The position numbers and the translations under genes were made by a program. Source: Candidatus Auribacterota bacterium (lineage in GTDB: Bacteria; Auribacterota; JAFGBW01). From it: a DNA stretch of 64,000 nt. The DNA is taken from positions 2,140-66,139 of the forward strand of contig JAFGBW010000039.1 in assembly GCA_016932965.1 (NCBI GenBank). The letters are read 5' to 3'. This document shows, piece by piece, positions 20,516 through 43,204 of this stretch. The notes under the pieces are model-generated. The model was not told the DNA's origin. It searched no databases and saw nothing but the letters and a program-made list of their open reading frames with translations. Numbering within the stretch: position 1 is the first letter of the stretch; every line of letters starts with the position of its first letter.

Positions 20516-22363
20516 TCATTCGACAGTGACAGACTTGGCCAGGTTTCTCGGTTTGTCGATCTGGTTTCCTTTATGTTTCGCAAAATAATAGGCCAGCATT
20601 TGAAGGACGATGACATTCAGTATCGGGGACAATTCTTCGGCGGTCTCGGGAATATAGATCACTTCATGCGAAAAGGACTTGACTTGTTCATCACCTTCTG
20701 TGGCCAATGAAATGATGATGCCTTCTCTGGCCTCGACTTCTTTGATGTTTGAAATCATTTTTTCATAAGTTTTAGATGCGGTACAGATGCATATCACCGG
20801 CAAGGCCTTGTTGATGAGAGCAATGGGACCGTGCTTCATTTCCCCCGCGGCGTATCCTTCGGCATGCATGTATGAGATCTCTTTATTTTTGAGTGCTCCT
20901 TCCATGGCCACGGGAAAATTCAGATGCCTTCCCAGATACAATGCGCTTGTTGCGAGATGATATTTTAAGGCGCATGAACGGATATGCTTTTCCGCCTGCA
21001 GTACTTTTACCACTTTAGATGGGAGATGGAAAATTTCTTTTAAAAGAGGATTCTTTTGTTTCCTTTTAAATTCTTTTCTGATTTGCGCGATATGGATTGA
21101 GAGAAGCAACAGGGTGATCACCTGGCTTGTAAGCGCCTTAGTTGAAGCAACCCCGATTTCAGGACCGGCATGAGTGTAAACAACACCGTGACTTTCTCTG
21201 TCTATTGAGCTGTTCAGCACATTCACAACGGAAAGGACTGTTGATCCGTGTTTTTTTGCTTCTAGGATGCTGGCGAGTGTATCAGCCGTTTCACCGGATT
21301 GAGAGATTGCAATAACTAGATTGTTTTTATTGAGTTTCGGTTTTGCGTATCTGAATTCAGAAGAAAGCATGACCTCCACAGGGAGATCCATGAATTCCTC
21401 AAAATAATATTTTCCAATATAGCCCGCATGATAGGCCGTGCCGCAGCCGGTAATATATATCCGGTCAATGGAGCGGAAAAAATCATCCGGGATCTTTAGA
21501 TCATTGAAACACATTTGAAAAGCATTTCTGTTGTTTCCCAGCCGTAGCCGGATAATCCGTTTCAATATTTCCGGCTGTTCATGGATTTCTTTATGGGTAT
21601 AGGATTCATGACCGCCCAAGCCTATGGACAAATTCTTAATATTAAGGCGGGTCGTCCTGATTTTTTTGTTTCGGCCGGATGAGACATTGAATAATCGGGA
21701 AGATGTGCCGTTGAAAATAAGGACGTCGCCTTCATCAAGGTAGAGGACTTCACGGGTACGGGTTATGAAAGGGGACGCATCTGAAGCCAGAAAAACTTCG
21801 TTATCCTTGAACCCTGCAATAAGGGGAGACCCTTTTCGTGCGGCGTAGATGGTTCCTGGAGTGTCTTTAGCGATCATGGCAATAGCGAATGCTCCTTCCA
21901 GTCTGGAGAGTGTTTTCATGAAAGCGTTTTTCATAGACATACCCTGAGAGAGGTATCGCGCGATCAAATGAGGGATCACTTCAGTATCGGTTTCTGAGAT
22001 AAAATGAATGCCTGCGTTTTTCAGCTCATGGCGCAGAACATCATGATTTTCAATGATGCCGTTATGAACAATACAGATCTTTTTGTCTTGTGACAGATGG
22101 GGATGGGCGTTATTTTGTGTCGGTTTCCCATGGGTTGCCCAGCGCGTATGGGCTATACCGGTTTTGCCTTGAAGAGGCCCATTTGAAAGGGATTTTTCCA
22201 GCATGTGAAGCATCCCGCATTCCTTGCGGATCTCGATATCGCCGATCGGGTTGACGACGGCAATCCCTGCGGAATCATAGCCACGGTATTCAAGGAGCCT
22301 CAACCCGTTCATCAAAAAATCAACACAATCCTTTTTTCCTGAATAAGCCACAATCCCGCACAT
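20516..22363 (-). CDS. glmS: Glutamine--fructose-6-phosphate aminotransferase (isomerizing)
   Basis: MCGIVAYSG is an Ntn-amidotransferase N-terminus with Cys2. Two SIS domains follow. Size 615 aa. Confidence 0.9.
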   Translation of the reverse strand: MCGIVAYSGKKDCVDFLMNGLRLLEYRGYDSAGIAVVNPIGDIEIRKECGMLHMLEKSLSNGPLQGKTGIAHTRWATHGKPTQNNAHPHLSQDKKICIVHNGIIENHDVLRHELKNAGIHFISETDTEVIPHLIARYLSQGMSMKNAFMKTLSRLEGAFAIAMIAKDTPGTIYAARKGSPLIAGFKDNEVFLASDASPFITRTREVLYLDEGDVLIFNGTSSRLFNVSSGRNKKIRTTRLNIKNLSIGLGGHESYTHKEIHEQPEILKRIIRLRLGNNRNAFQMCFNDLKIPDDFFRSIDRIYITGCGTAYHAGYIGKYYFEEFMDLPVEVMLSSEFRYAKPKLNKNNLVIAISQSGETADTLASILEAKKHGSTVLSVVNVLNSSIDRESHGVVYTHAGPEIGVASTKALTSQVITLLLLSIHIAQIRKEFKRKQKNPLLKEIFHLPSKVVKVLQAEKHIRSCALKYHLATSALYLGRHLNFPVAMEGALKNKEISYMHAEGYAAGEMKHGPIALINKALPVICICTASKTYEKMISNIKEVEAREGIIISLATEGDEQVKSFSHEVIYIPETAEELSPILNVIVLQMLAYYFAKHKGNQIDKPRNLAKSVTVE

Positions 22364-31454: not shown

Positions 31455-31512
31455 AATTTGACAGATACATGAGTATCAAAAATTAGTATTTCACCACGGA
31501 GAACACGGAGGG
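31455..31512. repeat. Intergenic repeat family 1, copy A (TTTGACAGATAC-N30-TTCACCACGGAGAACACGGAGGG)
   Basis: Aligns with 36765-36822 (copy B1): identical TTTGACAGATAC, and 21/23 identical in the CACCACG[A/G]AGAACACG[A/G]AGGG block. The -35-like TTGACA is at 31458-31463. Confidence 0.65.
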
Positions 31513-33652: not shown

Positions 33653-34684
33653 ATGATCATAGGTTTGACAGGCCGTAACGGTTCAGGAAAAAGTACGGTG
33701 GCTGAATTTTTGATTCATCGGGGTTTTCAATATTATTCATTATCGGATATCATCAGGGAAATCCTTTCAAAAGAAGGAAAGGAATTTTCCCGGGAGAATC
33801 TGATTGAAACCGGTAACAGTCTTCGTTCCACCATGGGGGCGGCCGTTCTTGCGGAGAAGACGGTTGAAAAACTGATGCCGGATCGAAATTATGTCATTGA
33901 TTCCATCCGGAATCCGTCAGAAGTGGAGCGGCTGAGAAAGGTAAAAGGTTTTAAACTCATCAGGGTGGAAGCTCCCACCCGGGTACGGTTTGAACGCTGT
34001 AAATCACGCAACCGAGAGAAGGCGGATCAAGATCTGGACTCTTTCAAAAAGCTCGAGAAGAAGGAGCTGAAAAGTCCTGATCCTGTTTCCCAGCAGCTGG
34101 AGAAGACCGGAAAAATGGCGGATTATATCCTGAGAAACAGCGGTTCGCTGGAGACTCTTCATGAGCAGGTAATCGAAATCTTGAAAGAGGTGACAAAAAA
34201 AATTTTCAGGCCGGGCTGGGACGAGTATTTCATGAATATCGCGAGAGTGGTGGCCCAGCGTTCCAATTGTGTGAAAAGGCATGTGGCTGCGGTCATCGTT
34301 CGTGATAACCGGATCATATCTACGGGCTACAACGGCACTCCCAGAGGGATCAAAAACTGCAATGAGGGAGGATGTCCCCGGTGCAACAGTTTCGGGGTAT
34401 CGGGGGAAAATCTGGGAGAATGCCTCTGTTCCCATGCGGAGGAAAATGCCATCACACAGGCAGCTTATCATGGGGTGTCCATCAGGGATGCAACATTATA
34501 TACTACCTTTTCACCCTGTCTCATATGCACTAAAATGATCATCAATTCCGGTATTCGGGAAGTGGTCTATGACTCCCGTTATTCCTTGAATGCCCTGGAG
34601 CTTCAGCTTTTGAAAGAAGCGGGGATATCCGTCAGAGCGCTCAGAGAGCATCGGGATTTCCCCGATCCGTCTGCCGGCAGATGA
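33653..34684 (+). CDS. Fusion protein: N-terminal P-loop nucleotide-kinase-like domain + C-terminal dCMP/dCTP deaminase (zinc) domain (AvcD/DcdV-like architecture)
   Basis: Walker A GLTGRNGSGKST (nt ~33662-33697). Walker B-like NYVIDSIRN. Deaminase zinc motifs CSHAEENAI -X24- PCLICTKMI (nt ~34420-34540), matching the (H/C)AE-X24-36-PC-X2-C dCMP deaminase signature. Confidence 0.7.
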   Translation: MIIGLTGRNGSGKSTVAEFLIHRGFQYYSLSDIIREILSKEGKEFSRENLIETGNSLRSTMGAAVLAEKTVEKLMPDRNYVIDSIRNPSEVERLRKVKGFKLIRVEAPTRVRFERCKSRNREKADQDLDSFKKLEKKELKSPDPVSQQLEKTGKMADYILRNSGSLETLHEQVIEILKEVTKKIFRPGWDEYFMNIARVVAQRSNCVKRHVAAVIVRDNRIISTGYNGTPRGIKNCNEGGCPRCNSFGVSGENLGECLCSHAEENAITQAAYHGVSIRDATLYTTFSPCLICTKMIINSGIREVVYDSRYSLNALELQLLKEAGISVRALREHRDFPDPSAGR

Positions 34685-34687
34685 ACG

Positions 34688-36733
34688 ATGATGAATCCTG
34701 ATTCTTTTGTTTCATTGATTGAAAAAGGGGAAATCTTCATACAGGATGGTTTCCTGCAGGAATTTCTTTCGTTGACCAGGGAACATCAGGTCTTATTTTT
34801 AAGGGAATTGATTCGTATTTCGGAACGAGACATCATCCCGGGCAGTTTCAGGACCTACGATTTGAGGATTGAAGCAGCCCGTCTTCCCAATCATGTCGTT
34901 TTTTATCTGGGGTTAAAAGCAGGGCCGATATTTAGAGAGATGACTCTGGGTCCGGACGGAAGATCGCTCATGATCGGAGTAGGCAGAGCGTTTGAAAAGG
35001 CCAGGCCTGGAAGTCATCGGATTCAACGCTGCTATATGAACGCATTGGCCCTGACCGGAGCCCGGGTCGTGGACCTGGGGGTCACAACCACCCCGGATAT
35101 TTATTTCGGACTCGCGTACCTGCTTCATCAGGGGCTCCACGTGGCGGTCAACGTGTCGGCCAGCCATAATCCGAAAAAAGACACCGGACTGAAACATTGT
35201 ATCCGGGACAGGGAAGGGTTCATTTACTCCATTTCCTCTGATCAGATGTCCCGGCTCAAAAATCATGTTCTGCCCGGGAAAAAAGAAAAAATACAGAGTG
35301 ATGCCTTTCTTTTAGACACGGATTTTCATTCGCTGGAAGTTTTTTCCGTTGATCATCAGATGCTTCCTGATGAAAATACCCTGAGCCGGTTTCATCATGC
35401 TTTCATTGTCGCCTTCGGACTCCTGGGGAAAAAAGCCATGAATGAAATGACCGTCCGTTATCAGGGTGATTTTTACCGGGTTCTTTCTTCACTGATTCCC
35501 CCGGAAAAACCGGATCAGTTGATCCCCGGATTGTTGAAATGGTTTGAAAAGCCGTCCGGGGAAATTCGGAAATGGCTGGAGTTGTCTCCGGATGTTTCTT
35601 TTCCCGGTGCCTGCGGGGAGAAGCCGTTGAAGGACATGGTTGTGGTTTTAGATCACGGCAGGGGGACGGCTTTCAGAACCATGGAAATTTATTCTGTGCT
35701 GGGCGCCCATGTCATCTGCGTGGATGAGGAAAGGGGGTATAATCCGTTGGAGTCGGGAAACCAGATGCACTGGAGAAAAGCGGTTCTGAAAGCTGCCGGA
35801 GATTTTCCCGGCAGGGAAGTCATCGGCCTGGCCCATGATGAAGATGGAGACCGTCTCGCGGTCATGCGTTCTGACGGGATCAACGTGGAAGGAGACCGGC
35901 TGCTCGTCATTTCCTGCAGGCAGATGGAACCCTCGGAAAAAAAACCGATTGTGATCACAGAAGTCAAATCGAGACCCGAGACAAGGAAGGCCCTGGAGGA
36001 TTCCGGCGTCGTTCCTGTGATTGCACCGACAGGGTTCGCCTTCATCAAAGAGACGGCCATTATACTGGAGAAGAAATTCAGGGAATTCCATGCCTGTTCG
36101 GAAAGCCCGGCGATCCTGAGACTTCACGGAAAGGAAATCAACCTGACAACAAACCTGCCTGTGCAGATGTGGGCGGAACTCAGCGGGCATTTCGGATTGA
36201 GCCAGGGATTGTCCTGGTTTTTTGATGATGCAACCCTCATGGCTGTGGATCTGCTTTTGGGTCTTGAAAAAAAAATTCAATCCGGAACCAGGCCCGGACG
36301 GGCGCTCATTTCTCTGGATGAAAGTTTTCCAAGGCATCCGAGTTCAGGTGAATTGAATATATTTCTCCGGACAACAGATCCGGAGTATGTTCCGACTTCC
36401 GAAGAAAAAGAGGCGTTTGTAGCCTTGTTTGCAGAACTTTTTTCCGCTGATCCGGCAGTGGATCATCTTGATCGTACGGATGGGGTTCAGATTTTTTTTA
36501 AAGACAGTCAGGGGGAATACGGCGGATGGATTCTGATTAGAAAATCCAACAATGAGGACAAGCTGGTTGTGGTGTCGTCAGCCCCCACAAAAGAACAACT
36601 GCATCATGTGGAACAATGCTTTCTGGAAAAAGCGCGTGCTCTTTCTCTTTCTCCTATTTCCGGGCTTGTGCTGACCCAAGAAGAAGAACAGGGAACAACC
36701 CGGAAAGCGGAACCGTATTTTTTGAATCGCTAA
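34688..36733 (+). CDS. alpha-D-phosphohexomutase superfamily protein (PGM/PMM-like, divergent, ~90-aa N-terminal extension)
   Basis: Active-site loop VNVSASHNPKKDTGLK (TASHNP-type phosphoserine), GVTTTPDIYF, Mg loop LAHDEDGDRLAV (DxDxDR). The start codon is 4 bp after the stop of the kinase-deaminase gene. Confidence 0.65.
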   Translation: MMNPDSFVSLIEKGEIFIQDGFLQEFLSLTREHQVLFLRELIRISERDIIPGSFRTYDLRIEAARLPNHVVFYLGLKAGPIFREMTLGPDGRSLMIGVGRAFEKARPGSHRIQRCYMNALALTGARVVDLGVTTTPDIYFGLAYLLHQGLHVAVNVSASHNPKKDTGLKHCIRDREGFIYSISSDQMSRLKNHVLPGKKEKIQSDAFLLDTDFHSLEVFSVDHQMLPDENTLSRFHHAFIVAFGLLGKKAMNEMTVRYQGDFYRVLSSLIPPEKPDQLIPGLLKWFEKPSGEIRKWLELSPDVSFPGACGEKPLKDMVVVLDHGRGTAFRTMEIYSVLGAHVICVDEERGYNPLESGNQMHWRKAVLKAAGDFPGREVIGLAHDEDGDRLAVMRSDGINVEGDRLLVISCRQMEPSEKKPIVITEVKSRPETRKALEDSGVVPVIAPTGFAFIKETAIILEKKFREFHACSESPAILRLHGKEINLTTNLPVQMWAELSGHFGLSQGLSWFFDDATLMAVDLLLGLEKKIQSGTRPGRALISLDESFPRHPSSGELNIFLRTTDPEYVPTSEEKEAFVALFAELFSADPAVDHLDRTDGVQIFFKDSQGEYGGWILIRKSNNEDKLVVVSSAPTKEQLHHVEQCFLEKARALSLSPISGLVLTQEEEQGTTRKAEPYFLNR

Positions 36734-36764: not shown

Positions 36765-36934
36765 AGTTTGACAGATACGGAAGCATCTTAAAAATAATTA
36801 TCACCACGAAGAACACGAGGGGTAAAAAGAGTTATGAGTGTTGAGTTTTTTTAAGTTTTGAGTTTAAATAAAATTATATTAGTAAACTCATTACTAAAAA
36901 TTTTTTCAAATGTACTTCGTGTTCTTCGTGGTGA
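36765..36934. repeat. Intergenic repeat family 1, copy B: TTTGACAGATAC + 18-bp perfect inverted repeat arms TCACCACGAAGAACACGA (36801-36818) / TCGTGTTCTTCGTGGTGA (36917-36934) with 98-bp AT-rich spacer
   Basis: Read directly. The arms are exact reverse complements. The left half aligns to copy A at 31455-31512. MITE-like or structured-RNA-like. Confidence 0.7.
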
Positions 36935-37048: not shown

Positions 37049-37081
37049 TTGTTTGACAGAGGAACTATCATATAATATAAT
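37049..37081 (+). promoter_or_regulatory. Near-consensus sigma70-type promoter: TTGACA (37053-37058) -17- TATAAC, with a perfect TATAAT overlapping at 37071-37076
   Basis: Read directly. It lies about 55 bp upstream of the GGAGGA ribosome-binding site and ATG of the twin-HTH gene. A third TTTGACAGA occurrence (also at 31458 and 36768). Confidence 0.55.
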
Positions 37082-37135
37082 CTATTTCTAACATAATGAA
37101 ATGAGTTTTTTGCAATAAGAGATTTGGAGGAAACA

Positions 37136-37885
37136 ATGACAAGGATCATGACAATTGGCAGTCGGGCAATCCGTGAAAGGGGACAATATTTTCATAATGA
37201 TGAAAATGAATTATCCAGGCCGGTCGCGCAATCAGCAGGCTCTCAACAAGACTCAGTGACAGGCGGCGGTGAGTCCATTGCTGAAAAAAAATCGTTTAGT
37301 CATCAGGAATTGATGGCCAAACAGGCTGAAGTAAGAAAAGAACTCATTAAGACCATGTTCAGGAAATATCAGGAATACCGGACCCTGCAGAAAGTGGCTT
37401 CTGATTATGGGTACACCCGTGAGCGTATCCGTCAGTATTTTGCCATAGGAAATAAACTGGGGATCATTGATTACAAGCCTTTCAACCGGCAGAACTTTCA
37501 GAGAATAAAAAATGAACTGACCAAGGATCGCCTGATCAAATATTTGAATGAAATGGGGACAATCCGCCGTATTTCCGAGGAATTGAATGTGGCAGTCAGT
37601 CATGTGAATCGCCTGATCAAATTATATAAATTGAATCTGTCCCAATTCAGGAGGAATTACCTCAAAACCGAAATATGCAAACAGTATTACACCATGGTGG
37701 AACAGCTGGGAGGCAAGCACCCATCCACTTACGATCTCTTGCTCATTAAAAACGGCCGGAATCTCTGGGCAAAAATTTCAAGGAATTGGGGAACCGTAAA
37801 AAAATTCCGGGAAGAGCAGCATATCCAGCTGGCAAGAAAATCAAGAAGAAGAAGAAAGAACAAGAATCTTCCTCCGGCTCAATGA
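37136..37885 (+). CDS. Twin helix-turn-helix protein with two sigma-70 region-4-like modules; putative transcriptional regulator
   Basis: RTLQKVASDYGYTRERIRQYFAIGNKL contains the sigma region 4.2 TRERIRQ hallmark. A second HTH is GTIRRISEELNVAVSHVNRLIKLYKL. Basic C-terminal tail. AT-rich gene. Start taken at the ATG after GGAGGA; the ORF track gives 37124. Confidence 0.5.
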   Translation: MTRIMTIGSRAIRERGQYFHNDENELSRPVAQSAGSQQDSVTGGGESIAEKKSFSHQELMAKQAEVRKELIKTMFRKYQEYRTLQKVASDYGYTRERIRQYFAIGNKLGIIDYKPFNRQNFQRIKNELTKDRLIKYLNEMGTIRRISEELNVAVSHVNRLIKLYKLNLSQFRRNYLKTEICKQYYTMVEQLGGKHPSTYDLLLIKNGRNLWAKISRNWGTVKKFREEQHIQLARKSRRRRKNKNLPPAQ

Positions 37886-37955
37886 GGTTATATTTTTCTC
37901 GAGATTTTTAAGTCTTGAGAGATAAATGATAATGAATTGAGAAATATTAAATTTG

Positions 37956-37993
37956 CCCTCTTTATCCCCTAGGTGATAAAGAGGGCTTTTTTA
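37956..37993 (+). terminator. Rho-independent terminator CCCTCTTTATC-CCCTAGGT-GATAAAGAGGG-CTTTTTTA
   Basis: 11-bp perfect stem, 8-nt loop and U-tract, 70 bp after the twin-HTH stop. Confidence 0.6.
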
Positions 37994-38091: not shown

Positions 38092-38120
38092 TTGACAAAG
38101 TAGATATTTACAAGTATTAT
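38092..38120 (+). promoter_or_regulatory. Near-consensus sigma70-type promoter TTGACA -17- TATTAT upstream of the GWD-like gene
   Basis: TTGACA at 38092-38097, 17-nt spacer, TATTAT at 38115-38120. The start codon is at 38162. Confidence 0.5.
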
Positions 38121-41524: not shown

Positions 41525-43204
41525 ATGGATAATAGCAAACCAATTCAGAAACGATTGAATCTCCCGGTTTTTCTTTTAGGAAAAGCTGGAAGAATCAGGG
41601 GTCAATCAATTTTTTTAATCCTATCCGGTTTCATCAGCAGTCTTCTTATTTTTTTCCATACACCGGCGTTTGCTGACCTCTGTTTATTCTGTCTTGCCCC
41701 ACAAGAGCAGACTTCAAGAGAAATGGCGGTTTTTACTTCCATTTCGAAAGAGCTGAACAGGGAAGGGCAAGTGGCTTTCAGAAGCATTCAAAGACCAGGC
41801 GAGGTCGATCTGATTGCTGCGGTGAAGTCAAGTGAGCCCGTCTATCTCCACTGGGGAGTTTCCCGTTTCGGGAAATGGGAGATGCCGCCTGAAGACATCC
41901 GGCCTTTGGATTCAATACCTAATCAAAAAGGGACATCTCTTCAAACCCGGATGCAGTCTTTATCGGGTGATATCCGGTTTGTAAAAATAACTGTGCCTGA
42001 ACATGTTGATTGCAGCGAAATCGCTTTTGTTTTTTATTATCCGGAACGGGCGAAGGAGCAACAGTGGGTTAAAGACGGAGACAAGGACTATTATCTGGCA
42101 GATATTCACACATTCCCGGAATTAATTAGCTGCAATGAACAGACAAGGACCCTGGAATTCAACAAACATGAACTGAAAAAATGGATCATTGGATTGATTG
42201 AAAGAGGACTTCTTCCCATGCTGTTTTTTGATTTTGATGATACGTTGAATCTGGGGTATGGCGGATATATGCCTGACGAATCCATTGGGGCTTTGGATCA
42301 GCTTGTCAATGCCGGCGGGATCATTGCCATTCATTCAGGGATAGATTTATTATGGGGAAGCCAGAAAATTCTCCGTTTGACGCAATCCAGATTTCCGTTT
42401 CATTTTCTGGTCTTGAGCACGGGTAAAGATATTTTTGCCTGGAGTCATCAGCATAAGGCCTATTTAAAACTTCCATTCTCAGGAGACAATAAGAGCGATG
42501 CTTTAATGAAACTGGCCTCTTTTTTAGGAATTCTGCCTCATCAAATGGGGTATTGCTGTGATTTTCCCGGAAGCGGTGATAAACAGGACGGGATTGATGA
42601 TCCGACATTATCTTCAAACATCGGTTTCATAGCCAATGTAAGTCCGTTTGGAAGAATGATGAAACTTCCCGCTGAATCTTCAACCAGACTGATTCAGCCT
42701 GATGATAACCCTTTGACAAGGCAGGCTAAAGGCGCCTGTAATTACATGGCTGCGGCAAGCGATGTGTTGCGACAATATGGTCAAACACCGAATCAAGCCA
42801 TCAGTGATATCAACACCAAGTTACTGGCCGCTGGTTTTAAACTGCCGGTCCTGGAACCCCGTGTGGATCAATATACTGTCTGGACCAAGGACAATCAGGT
42901 GTCAGCTATCCCTGAAGGACATGTTCTGCGTGTTGAGACTGACAAACCCGGAATGGTCTATGCCGGAAAAGAAGGAATCAGCGGCTGGGAACGAACGTAC
43001 GCTATTCCCCTAAGATTAGAAAGCGGTAAATGGATAGCTGATATTTTAGACCCTGAAGTCAATACCTTTACTTTTATCGAGAACGATCCTCTTGATGAAA
43101 AAAAGGTCGGGTGGCTAGGAAAAAAAGGCGCAAATTATTATTTTTCCAGATACGCTGTTCCATCCGGGACGTCTCATGGGTCCCAAGCTTCGTTTTCAGC
43201 CTGA
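41525..43204 (+). CDS. CBM-like domain + HAD-superfamily phosphatase-like protein with N-terminal signal peptide
   Basis: The N-terminal hydrophobic segment ends in AFA|DL (AxA signal-peptidase site). Residues ~93-195 are about 45% identical to residues ~74-175 of the preceding dikinase (LHWGVSRFGKWEMPPEDI...QWVKDGDKDY vs VHWGKSRYGNWEIPPEAI...QWVKDGNRNY). The HAD motif I FFDFDDTL is at nt ~42225-42245. Confidence 0.6.
   Translation: MDNSKPIQKRLNLPVFLLGKAGRIRGQSIFLILSGFISSLLIFFHTPAFADLCLFCLAPQEQTSREMAVFTSISKELNREGQVAFRSIQRPGEVDLIAAVKSSEPVYLHWGVSRFGKWEMPPEDIRPLDSIPNQKGTSLQTRMQSLSGDIRFVKITVPEHVDCSEIAFVFYYPERAKEQQWVKDGDKDYYLADIHTFPELISCNEQTRTLEFNKHELKKWIIGLIERGLLPMLFFDFDDTLNLGYGGYMPDESIGALDQLVNAGGIIAIHSGIDLLWGSQKILRLTQSRFPFHFLVLSTGKDIFAWSHQHKAYLKLPFSGDNKSDALMKLASFLGILPHQMGYCCDFPGSGDKQDGIDDPTLSSNIGFIANVSPFGRMMKLPAESSTRLIQPDDNPLTRQAKGACNYMAAASDVLRQYGQTPNQAISDINTKLLAAGFKLPVLEPRVDQYTVWTKDNQVSAIPEGHVLRVETDKPGMVYAGKEGISGWERTYAIPLRLESGKWIADILDPEVNTFTFIENDPLDEKKVGWLGKKGANYYFSRYAVPSGTSHGSQASFSA

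Follow-up and report, generated by a model that had tools for sequence, protein, structure and literature searches.

A 64-kb stretch of contig JAFGBW010000039.1 from a Candidatus Auribacterota bacterium (assembly GCA_016932965.1, positions 2,140 to 66,139; the whole stretch is referred to as the window in the following) carries a gene for a protein of 681 amino acids (aa) which, at a probability of roughly 0.6, is a phosphomannomutase-type enzyme of the phosphomannomutase/phosphoglucomutase (PMM/PGM) class from a clade linked to phosphomannose isomerase (PMI), its junction with the kinase-deaminase gene directly upstream being incidental (Table 1). The protein is identical to the NCBI protein JW774_01705, a 'hypothetical protein' from a Candidatus Aureabacteria metagenome-assembled genome (MAG). 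Both the superfamily and its chemistry are familiar. The clade itself is uncharacterised and for the most part without annotation; what sets it apart are large insertions, scores that fall short of all curated thresholds and the fact that it is linked or fused to PMI.

Catalytic loops, fold and phylogenetic position of the mutase

With respect to its active site, the protein is apparently a catalytically competent four-domain alpha-D-phosphohexomutase, as judged from residue conservation. The phosphoserine and metal-binding loops given in the original prediction as SASHNP and DxDxDR are both present, and the family alignment shows no variation at A158, S159, H160 and N161, nor in the stretch from H383 to R389 with the exception of the position of G387. 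In the PMM/PGM of Pseudomonas aeruginosa (AlgC; PDB 1K35, 1PCJ, 2FKM) the metal loop has its counterpart in D242/D244/D246/R247, and the correspondence extends to S108/S159 and to K285/K427 (AlgC/window mutase), the latter lysine being part of an invariant E425-V426-K427. The sugar- and phosphate-binding loops had been called poorly recognisable. However, both can be recognised as invariant elements that align to PMM/PGM, E497/S499/H501 of AELSGH matching E325/S327/H329 of AlgC and R618/S620/N621 of RKSNNED matching R421/S423/N424, with R618 to N621 invariant in the family and RPSGTEP as the equivalent loop in GlmM. Because all catalytic residues are invariant in the family, a non-catalytic paralogue was ruled out.

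Compared to AlgC, which has 463 aa and is ~20% identical, the window mutase and its clade carry ~230 extra residues. These stem from four sources, namely an N-terminal helical extension, the insertion that parts domain 1 from domain 2, additional segments within domains 3 and 4, and a tail at the C-terminus, so that the bulk of the extra length is internal and not N-terminal. The N-terminal extension itself, previously estimated at ~90 aa, shrinks to ~40-50 aa, as Pfam domain PGM_PMM_I covers residues 53-173 (35.2 bits) and the FRTYDLR motif at residues 54-60 can be aligned; in the AlphaFold2 (AF2) model it forms helices at residues 4-48 with a predicted local distance difference test (pLDDT) of 89-96. 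A wrong start codon was ruled out, since the N-terminus aligns among homologues, is modelled as confident helices and is identical in the NCBI gene model. In turn, alignments to GlmM and AlgC skip from residue ~175 to residue ~313, and it is because of this ~130-aa insertion that Pfam domain II goes undetected; domains III and IV are at threshold.

The AF2 model of the entire protein (pLDDT 89.3, predicted template-modelling score pTM 0.90) is built of four domains, the active site lying in the cleft between them, and its Foldseek alignments to PMM/PGM, GlmM and PGM structures are full-length. The six best matches are all AlgC structures (E 2e-24, template-modelling (TM) score 0.82-0.83), followed by archaeal and other PMM/PGMs, whereas the scores for GlmM are lower (TM ~0.73). 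Likewise, a profile of the family scored against the PDB has 1K35 in first place with 144.5 bits, followed by the Pyrococcus horikoshii PMM/PGM (109 bits), GlmM (104 bits) and phosphopentomutase (63.7 bits).

In contrast, the curated NCBIfam models for GlmM and PMM assign only 35-99 bits to the mutase at cut-offs of 439-801. This holds for the PMM/PGM equivalogs (NF007088, 49.6 vs 618 bits; NF046027, 61.8 vs 600; NF011943, 35.4 vs 801) as well as for those of GlmM (TIGR01455, 71.9 vs 447.55; TIGR03990, 98.7 vs 439). Among 5.8 billion clustered proteins, relatives were confined to ten other clusters at 43-52% identity and one at 29%, after which the next matches were canonical enzymes at E >= 6e-11. 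When 1.84 billion representatives were searched with a profile, a few single-stretch matches of 540-1095 bits were obtained before the scores dropped to ~230 bits and to multi-stretch matches. In a neighbour-joining (NJ) tree, which is crude and without bootstrap, the window clade and its sister clade form a monophyletic group with a long stem, and the canonical PMM/PGM and GlmM proteins (~450 aa) fall outside it. Therefore, the mutase is not a standard GlmM or ManB orthologue, and its description as a divergent phosphohexomutase has been borne out.

The recurrent isomerase partner and the predicted reaction

Gene neighbourhoods were inspected for every cluster of the family other than P0005, which is closely related to P0006, P0007 and P0009, and a genome scan added 23 further mutase loci. 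In 18 of these 23, from Dehalococcoidia, Chloroflexota, Syntrophoarchaeum and Aenigmatarchaeota, the mutase is fused to a PMI located N-terminally of it, either as PMI-mutase proteins of 920-960 aa or, with an additional domain termed X, as X-PMI-mutase proteins of 1350-1500 aa. These uncharacterised fusions (e.g. P0156, P0157, P0012) form the sister clade, are ~30% identical to the window mutase, are matched by the family hidden Markov model in a single stretch at 540-612 bits, group with the window clade in the NJ tree and share its AELSGH and RKSN loops and the insertion between domains 1 and 2. They differ in that they start with a genuine class-I PMI (at its N-terminus, P0156 clears the cut-off of the manA equivalog with 131.4 vs 116.2 bits), often together with the ~500-aa domain of no recognisable family, and in that all four Pfam PGM_PMM domains are detectable, while the window mutase stands alone and its PMI is unlinked. 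The N-terminal helical extension of the window mutase corresponds in position to the linker of the fusions. No description of PMI-PMM fusions turned up in a literature search, which is a weak negative.

Within the window's own clade, a separate PMI-like gene lies directly upstream of the mutase in L001-L006 and in L012, i.e. in three lineages. In L001-L003 (P0008) and L004-L006 (P0011) it codes for a coupled protein of 365-387 aa with the motifs SLSVQVHP, KPEMW and VHAIR and weak matches to manA and PMI models, and in L012 it is separated from the mutase by a scaffold gap. At the other loci, the upstream neighbour is PurM (L010, L011, L013, L014 and L042; TIGR00878, 405 bits vs a cut-off of 236) or an 840-aa second mutase paralogue, which overlaps the mutase gene in L007 and is split off in L008 by an inserted MmeI-type restriction-modification system; L009 has no upstream neighbour.

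A tblastn search of the window found no PMI-like sequence in it. However, a profile of the PMI-like proteins collected ~65 clusters, amongst them P0310, which is JW774_13080, listed as 'hypothetical protein' from a Candidatus Aureabacteria bacterium and sharing its locus-tag prefix with the window genes. P0310 has no Pfam match; its model (pLDDT 96.3) has class-I PMIs as all of its top 17 Foldseek matches (1QWR, E 2e-20, TM 0.82), and positions Q139, H141, E154 and H207, which by homology to known PMIs we take to be the zinc ligands, are invariant in 38 sequences including canonical PMIs. On its contig (L041) the gene adjoins one for a polytopic membrane protein and not the mutase. Given this context and the shared MAG, the PMI partner is retained in the window genome but unlinked, having moved to another contig.

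The conserved fusion to, or adjacency of, a class-I PMI, a partner that the original prediction did not foresee, suggests that the mutase most likely interconverts mannose 6-phosphate (Man-6-P) and mannose 1-phosphate (Man-1-P), and possibly also glucose 6-phosphate (Glc-6-P) and glucose 1-phosphate (Glc-1-P). PMI would thus supply Man-6-P from fructose 6-phosphate, and the mutase would turn it into Man-1-P. Going by the loop roles and the flip mechanism described for the superfamily (PMC7101342), phospho-Ser159 would, with Mg2+ held by D384, D386 and D388, transfer its phosphoryl group to a hexose monophosphate, the phosphate of which would be anchored by R618, S620 and N621 of domain 4 while E497 and S499 would read the O3 and O4 hydroxyls of the sugar; the resulting 1,6-bisphosphate intermediate would flip, and its other phosphate would go back to Ser159.

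Several observations weigh against the assignment to mannose phosphate. His308 of AlgC is replaced by Phe450 in the window mutase, the other catalytic residues aligning residue for residue, and the best-scoring NCBIfam models are those of GlmM, though far under cut-off. In addition, a PMI-like gene adjoins the mutase in only 3 of ~9 independent contexts of the window's subclade and is not adjacent to it in the window genome, and the PMI-like partner is itself divergent and has no Pfam match above threshold, so that we infer its substrate, too. Finally, the upstream neighbours in other lineages (PurM; an AMP-phosphorylase/RuBisCO cluster) and the deaminase in the window are all nucleotide-related.

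This nucleotide context bears on the alternative that the mutase is of the phosphopentomutase type, converting ribose 1-phosphate or deoxyribose 1-phosphate into the 5-phosphates and vice versa, and forms a functional operon for nucleotide or deoxynucleotide salvage with the kinase-deaminase. In line with it, the 3-nucleotide (nt) spacer suggests co-expression of the two genes, clade members lie directly behind PurM and, in two Aenigmatarchaeota, behind AMP phosphorylase, RuBisCO III and e2b2, and the superfamily includes archaeal phosphopentomutases, with PDB 9ix8 among the matches. However, these three nucleotide-related neighbours are different genes, each of which is confined to one lineage, and the kinase-deaminase accompanies the mutase in none of the related loci (see below), whereas PMI is the only neighbour that recurs across phyla and is physically fused to the mutase. 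Moreover, amongst the PDB matches compared, the profile scores 9ix8 at less than half the value of AlgC (63.7 vs 144.5 bits), and the sugar loop of the mutase has the hexose-type sequence E-x-S-G-H. A phosphopentomutase is therefore regarded as unlikely.

Equally, it is improbable that the mutase serves as the phosphoglucosamine mutase (GlmM) of the cell, acting downstream of GlmS and feeding the synthesis of UDP-N-acetylglucosamine. GlmM proteins (e.g. PDB 9G69 and 3PDK) belong to the same superfamily, have an identical SASHNP loop and supply the best single-sequence matches, including the top PDB match; the models Arch_GlmM and glmM are those with the 98.7 and 71.9 bits given above, and a glmS gene is found 12 kb away in the window (20516-22363). 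These scores are nevertheless 4-6 fold under the equivalog cut-offs of 439 and 447, both family profile and fold favour PMM/PGM over GlmM, and the conserved gene partner is PMI and not GlmS or GlmU. Genomes with sister fusions even have a true GlmM right beside the fusion: in L018 and L020 the gene directly upstream codes for a genuine Arch_GlmM (472 vs 439 bits), so that the role of GlmM in those genomes does not fall to the fused mutase.

A third alternative, to which we likewise give little weight, assumes that the clade together with its divergent PMI-like partner and the ~500-aa domain fused to it in Dehalococcoidia and archaea constitutes a multi-enzyme channel for a different sugar phosphate, a candidate being a nucleotide-derived pentose or deoxypentose phosphate. 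If this were true, the recurrent neighbours kinase-deaminase, PurM and AMP phosphorylase would gain real meaning.

Besides the mutase and PMI, these loci contain further conserved elements. Domain X (L019:7556-9100, L021:7646-9200, L023:5948-7435 and ten further loci) is fused N-terminally to PMI-mutase or encoded just upstream in 13 loci from Dehalococcoidia, Chloroflexota and Syntrophoarchaeum; it had no match in Pfam, NCBIfam or PDB sequence searches and may be a third enzyme of the pathway. In two Aenigmatarchaeota MAGs (L027:5163-8895, L031:1329-5006) the PMI-mutase fusion is directly downstream of an AMP-salvage trio, consisting of an e2b2/IF-2B-family gene, a form-III RuBisCO and an AMP phosphorylase. 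Polytopic membrane proteins of ~513 aa flank the PMI-like genes in two lineages (L041:1722-3263, 513 aa; L001:5001-6545 on the minus strand, 514 aa). They have no Pfam match at E <= 0.1 and no mutual BLAST similarity; a GT2 glycosyltransferase is encoded nearby in L001, and both may be glycan-assembly proteins. The second phosphohexomutase paralogue mentioned above has 840-848 aa (L007:1893-4415, L008:450-2996, L014:19101-21398 on the minus strand), carries the loops TASHNP, GGEESMG and RPSGTEP and a long C-terminal extension, and in some relatives lies next to the clade mutase or overlaps it; neither this paralogue nor the other partners from relatives were found by tblastn in the window.

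The kinase-deaminase junction and the downstream region

The gene directly upstream codes for a P-loop kinase fused to a dCMP/cytidine deaminase, with GRNGSGKST at residues 7-15 as the P-loop, HAEENA (261-266) and PCLIC (288-292) as zinc deaminase motifs, and Pfam matches to AAA_18 and dCMP_cyt_deam_1. As previously reported, the mutase start follows just after its stop; the spacer counts 3 nt (TGA-ACG-ATGATG). The two genes are probably co-transcribed. No clear Shine-Dalgarno sequence could be found at the 3-nt junction; a translational coupling of the mutase by a reinitiation-type mechanism is plausible. However, spacers of up to 10 nt or overlaps occur in 14 out of 34 same-strand neighbour pairs in the window, for instance between the unrelated glmS and a phosphoribosyltransferase gene, so that a junction as tight as this is ordinary for the genome. 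Also the surroundings are of a housekeeping nature, with rplM-rpsI, a prephenate dehydrogenase gene on the opposite strand and, further off, cysS and glmS.

The functional link between both genes that had been proposed finds no support, as the kinase-deaminase is present at none of the 37 loci with a mutase homologue (0/37) and the pair is thus not co-conserved in any of them, a result that the original prediction itself had named as refuting it. In addition, tblastn searches of 36 related loci with the kinase-deaminase, the helix-turn-helix (HTH) protein, the glucan water-dikinase (GWD)-like protein, the 559-aa protein and the prephenate dehydrogenase from the window found none of them, and the P0009 mutase contig, looked up for the kinase-deaminases P0151 and P0041, has only the PurM-mutase arrangement. 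The kinase-deaminase itself is one of a very large family; 6,313 homologues at E <= 0.001 were counted among 8,000 candidates scored, and the best 120 listed are 59-70% identical; the sources span several phyla, including Deltaproteobacteria, Omnitrophota, Chlamydiota and Pseudomonadota MAGs. Of two of its closest homologues, one (P0043) sits between GroES and QueA (L037-L039), the other (P0039) among TatD, PSP1 and DivIC genes (L040), and neither has a mutase beside it. Since both come from the same samples as the mutase homologues P0008 and P0004 and match them in tetranucleotide composition (r = 0.96-0.97), the two genes very probably share a genome in these two relatives but are unlinked, on different contigs. 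The adjacency in the window hence looks like lineage-specific gene packing in a housekeeping region and not like a functional module.

The same observations bear on the suggestion that the kinase-deaminase is an AvcD-like anti-phage dCTP deaminase and the mutase its accessory or effector. The upstream protein has the two-domain architecture of AvcD, with a P-loop kinase-like N-terminal and a dCMP-deaminase C-terminal domain, and matches both the dCTPase model of PADLOC (223 bits, E 2e-66), which has no curated cut-off, and the NCBIfam model for anti-phage dCTP deaminases (antiphage_deaminase, 165.8 bits). Yet the latter score is under the cut-off of 400, the protein is shorter (343 aa), and the mutase is without a PADLOC match. 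The shortest length at which AvcI, the small RNA antitoxin encoded beside avcD, functions is ~171 nt (PMC10511110), whereas only 93 nt separate the deaminase gene from the divergent prephenate dehydrogenase gene upstream, so that an RNA of at least 171 nt would have to overlap or lie downstream. The thousands of homologues, two of them in housekeeping contexts, the neighbouring rplM-rpsI and prephenate dehydrogenase genes and the lack of a mutase beside any kinase-deaminase homologue examined argue in the same direction, so that a defence role of the pair is highly improbable and the least likely of the alternatives considered here. It may be added as an observation in its own right that a kinase-deaminase matching defence dCTP-deaminase models is found in housekeeping contexts.

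Downstream of the mutase, the GWD-like gene and the gene for a second Ig_N_CWD1 protein follow at a distance of 1.4 kb on the same strand. PMM/PGM-class enzymes are often bifunctional, and the mutase might thus act as a phosphoglucomutase (Glc-1-P/Glc-6-P) in glucan turnover by this module, a link that had been considered in the original prediction as well. It is doubtful, however, as the two are kept apart by a 390-nt AT-rich spacer and an HTH gene, by two promoters (one of them a 12/12 match to the sigma-70 consensus at 37053-37081, the other at 38092) and by a strong terminator at 37955-37986, and as the arrangement is not conserved, with no GWD-like or HTH homologue near any mutase homologue in the 36 loci searched. 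The plant-type glucan-phosphorylation module as such is unusual in a bacterium, and the N-terminus of the 1116-aa protein is hydrophobic and resembles a signal peptide. Translation of the HTH gene probably begins at the ATG at 37136, in front of which a GGAGG box is found in ...TTGGAGGAAACAATG; the TTG at 37124 is less likely.

The AT-rich spacer also harbours a perfect inverted repeat with a promoter-like TTGACA-16-AAAAAT ahead of it and a predicted RNA fold of -50.3 kcal/mol (z = -9.2), and a partial second copy of the element is located elsewhere in the window (Table 1). An Rfam scan of the whole window had no match, the inverted repeat included; a small RNA is one possible identity of the element, a repeated promoter-leader element another.

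Table 1. Coordinates of the mutase gene, its predicted functional elements and neighbouring features in the window (residue numbers refer to the 681-aa protein)
Feature	Coordinates	Strand	Basis or remark
Divergent alpha-D-phosphohexomutase gene, PMM/PGM class, PMI-linked clade, 681 aa	34688..36733	+	Open reading frame (ORF) and translation
N-terminal helical extension, residues 1-53, ~40 aa longer than AlgC	34688..34846	+	AF2, Pfam, family alignment
FRTYDLR, residues 54-60, corresponding to FRAYDIR 14-20 of P. aeruginosa PMM/PGM (Y17/R20 to Y57/R60)	34847..34867	+	Alignment
Phosphoserine loop SASHNP, 157-162, predicted catalytic Ser159	35156..35173	+	Aligns to TGSHNP (Ser108) of AlgC
Helical insertion of ~130 aa between domains 1 and 2, residues ~184-313	35237..35626	+	AF2 secondary structure
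Metal-binding loop DEDGDR, 384-389 (D384, D386, D388, R389)	35837..35854	+	Aligns to DGDGDR of AlgC
TEVK, 424-427 (K427 = AlgC K285)	35957..35968	+	Alignment
Sugar-binding loop AELSGH, 496-501 (E497, S499, H501)	36173..36190	+	Invariant; aligns to GEMSGH of AlgC
Phosphate-binding loop RKSNNED, 618-624 (R618, S620, N621)	36539..36559	+	Aligns to RASNTTP of AlgC
P-loop kinase + dCMP/cytidine deaminase fusion, 343 aa, upstream neighbour	33653..34684	+	Pfam, motifs
Junction TGA-ACG-ATGATG, kinase-deaminase stop to mutase start, 3-nt spacer	34682..34693	+	Direct reading
Perfect 18-nt inverted repeat TCACCACGAAGAACACGA / TCGTGTTCTTCGTGGTGA, 98 nt between arms	36767..36934	+	AT-rich spacer after mutase
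Partial second copy, promoter-like box and 5' arm (TTTGACAGATAC...TCACCACGRAGAACACG)	31457..31512	+	Between EIIA gene and rpsI
HTH gene	37124..37885		ORF-finder start TTG 37124
Alpha-glucan water-dikinase-like protein, 1116 aa	38162..41512		Ig_N_CWD1, GWD1_pHisD, PPDK_N domains
559-aa protein, 12 nt after the GWD-like gene	41525..43204		Only Ig_N_CWD1 domain

A probable role in mannose-phosphate metabolism in Aureabacteria and other lineages

Had the deaminase and the mutase formed a real module, a new pathway for nucleotide sugars or for defence would have been suggested, whereas the evidence indicates gene packing. In turn, a rare and very divergent clade of phosphohexomutases labelled 'hypothetical protein' can be tied to mannose-phosphate metabolism by a Rosetta-stone fusion with class-I PMI, and annotation also gains a PMI-like family that is invisible to Pfam and a ~500-aa fusion domain of no recognisable family. 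If the assignment were confirmed biochemically, it would provide a structurally unusual PMM with ~230 additional residues for comparison with AlgC-type enzymes, and it would fill in the steps towards the GDP-mannose precursor in Aureabacteria, Dehalococcoidia and several archaeal lineages.

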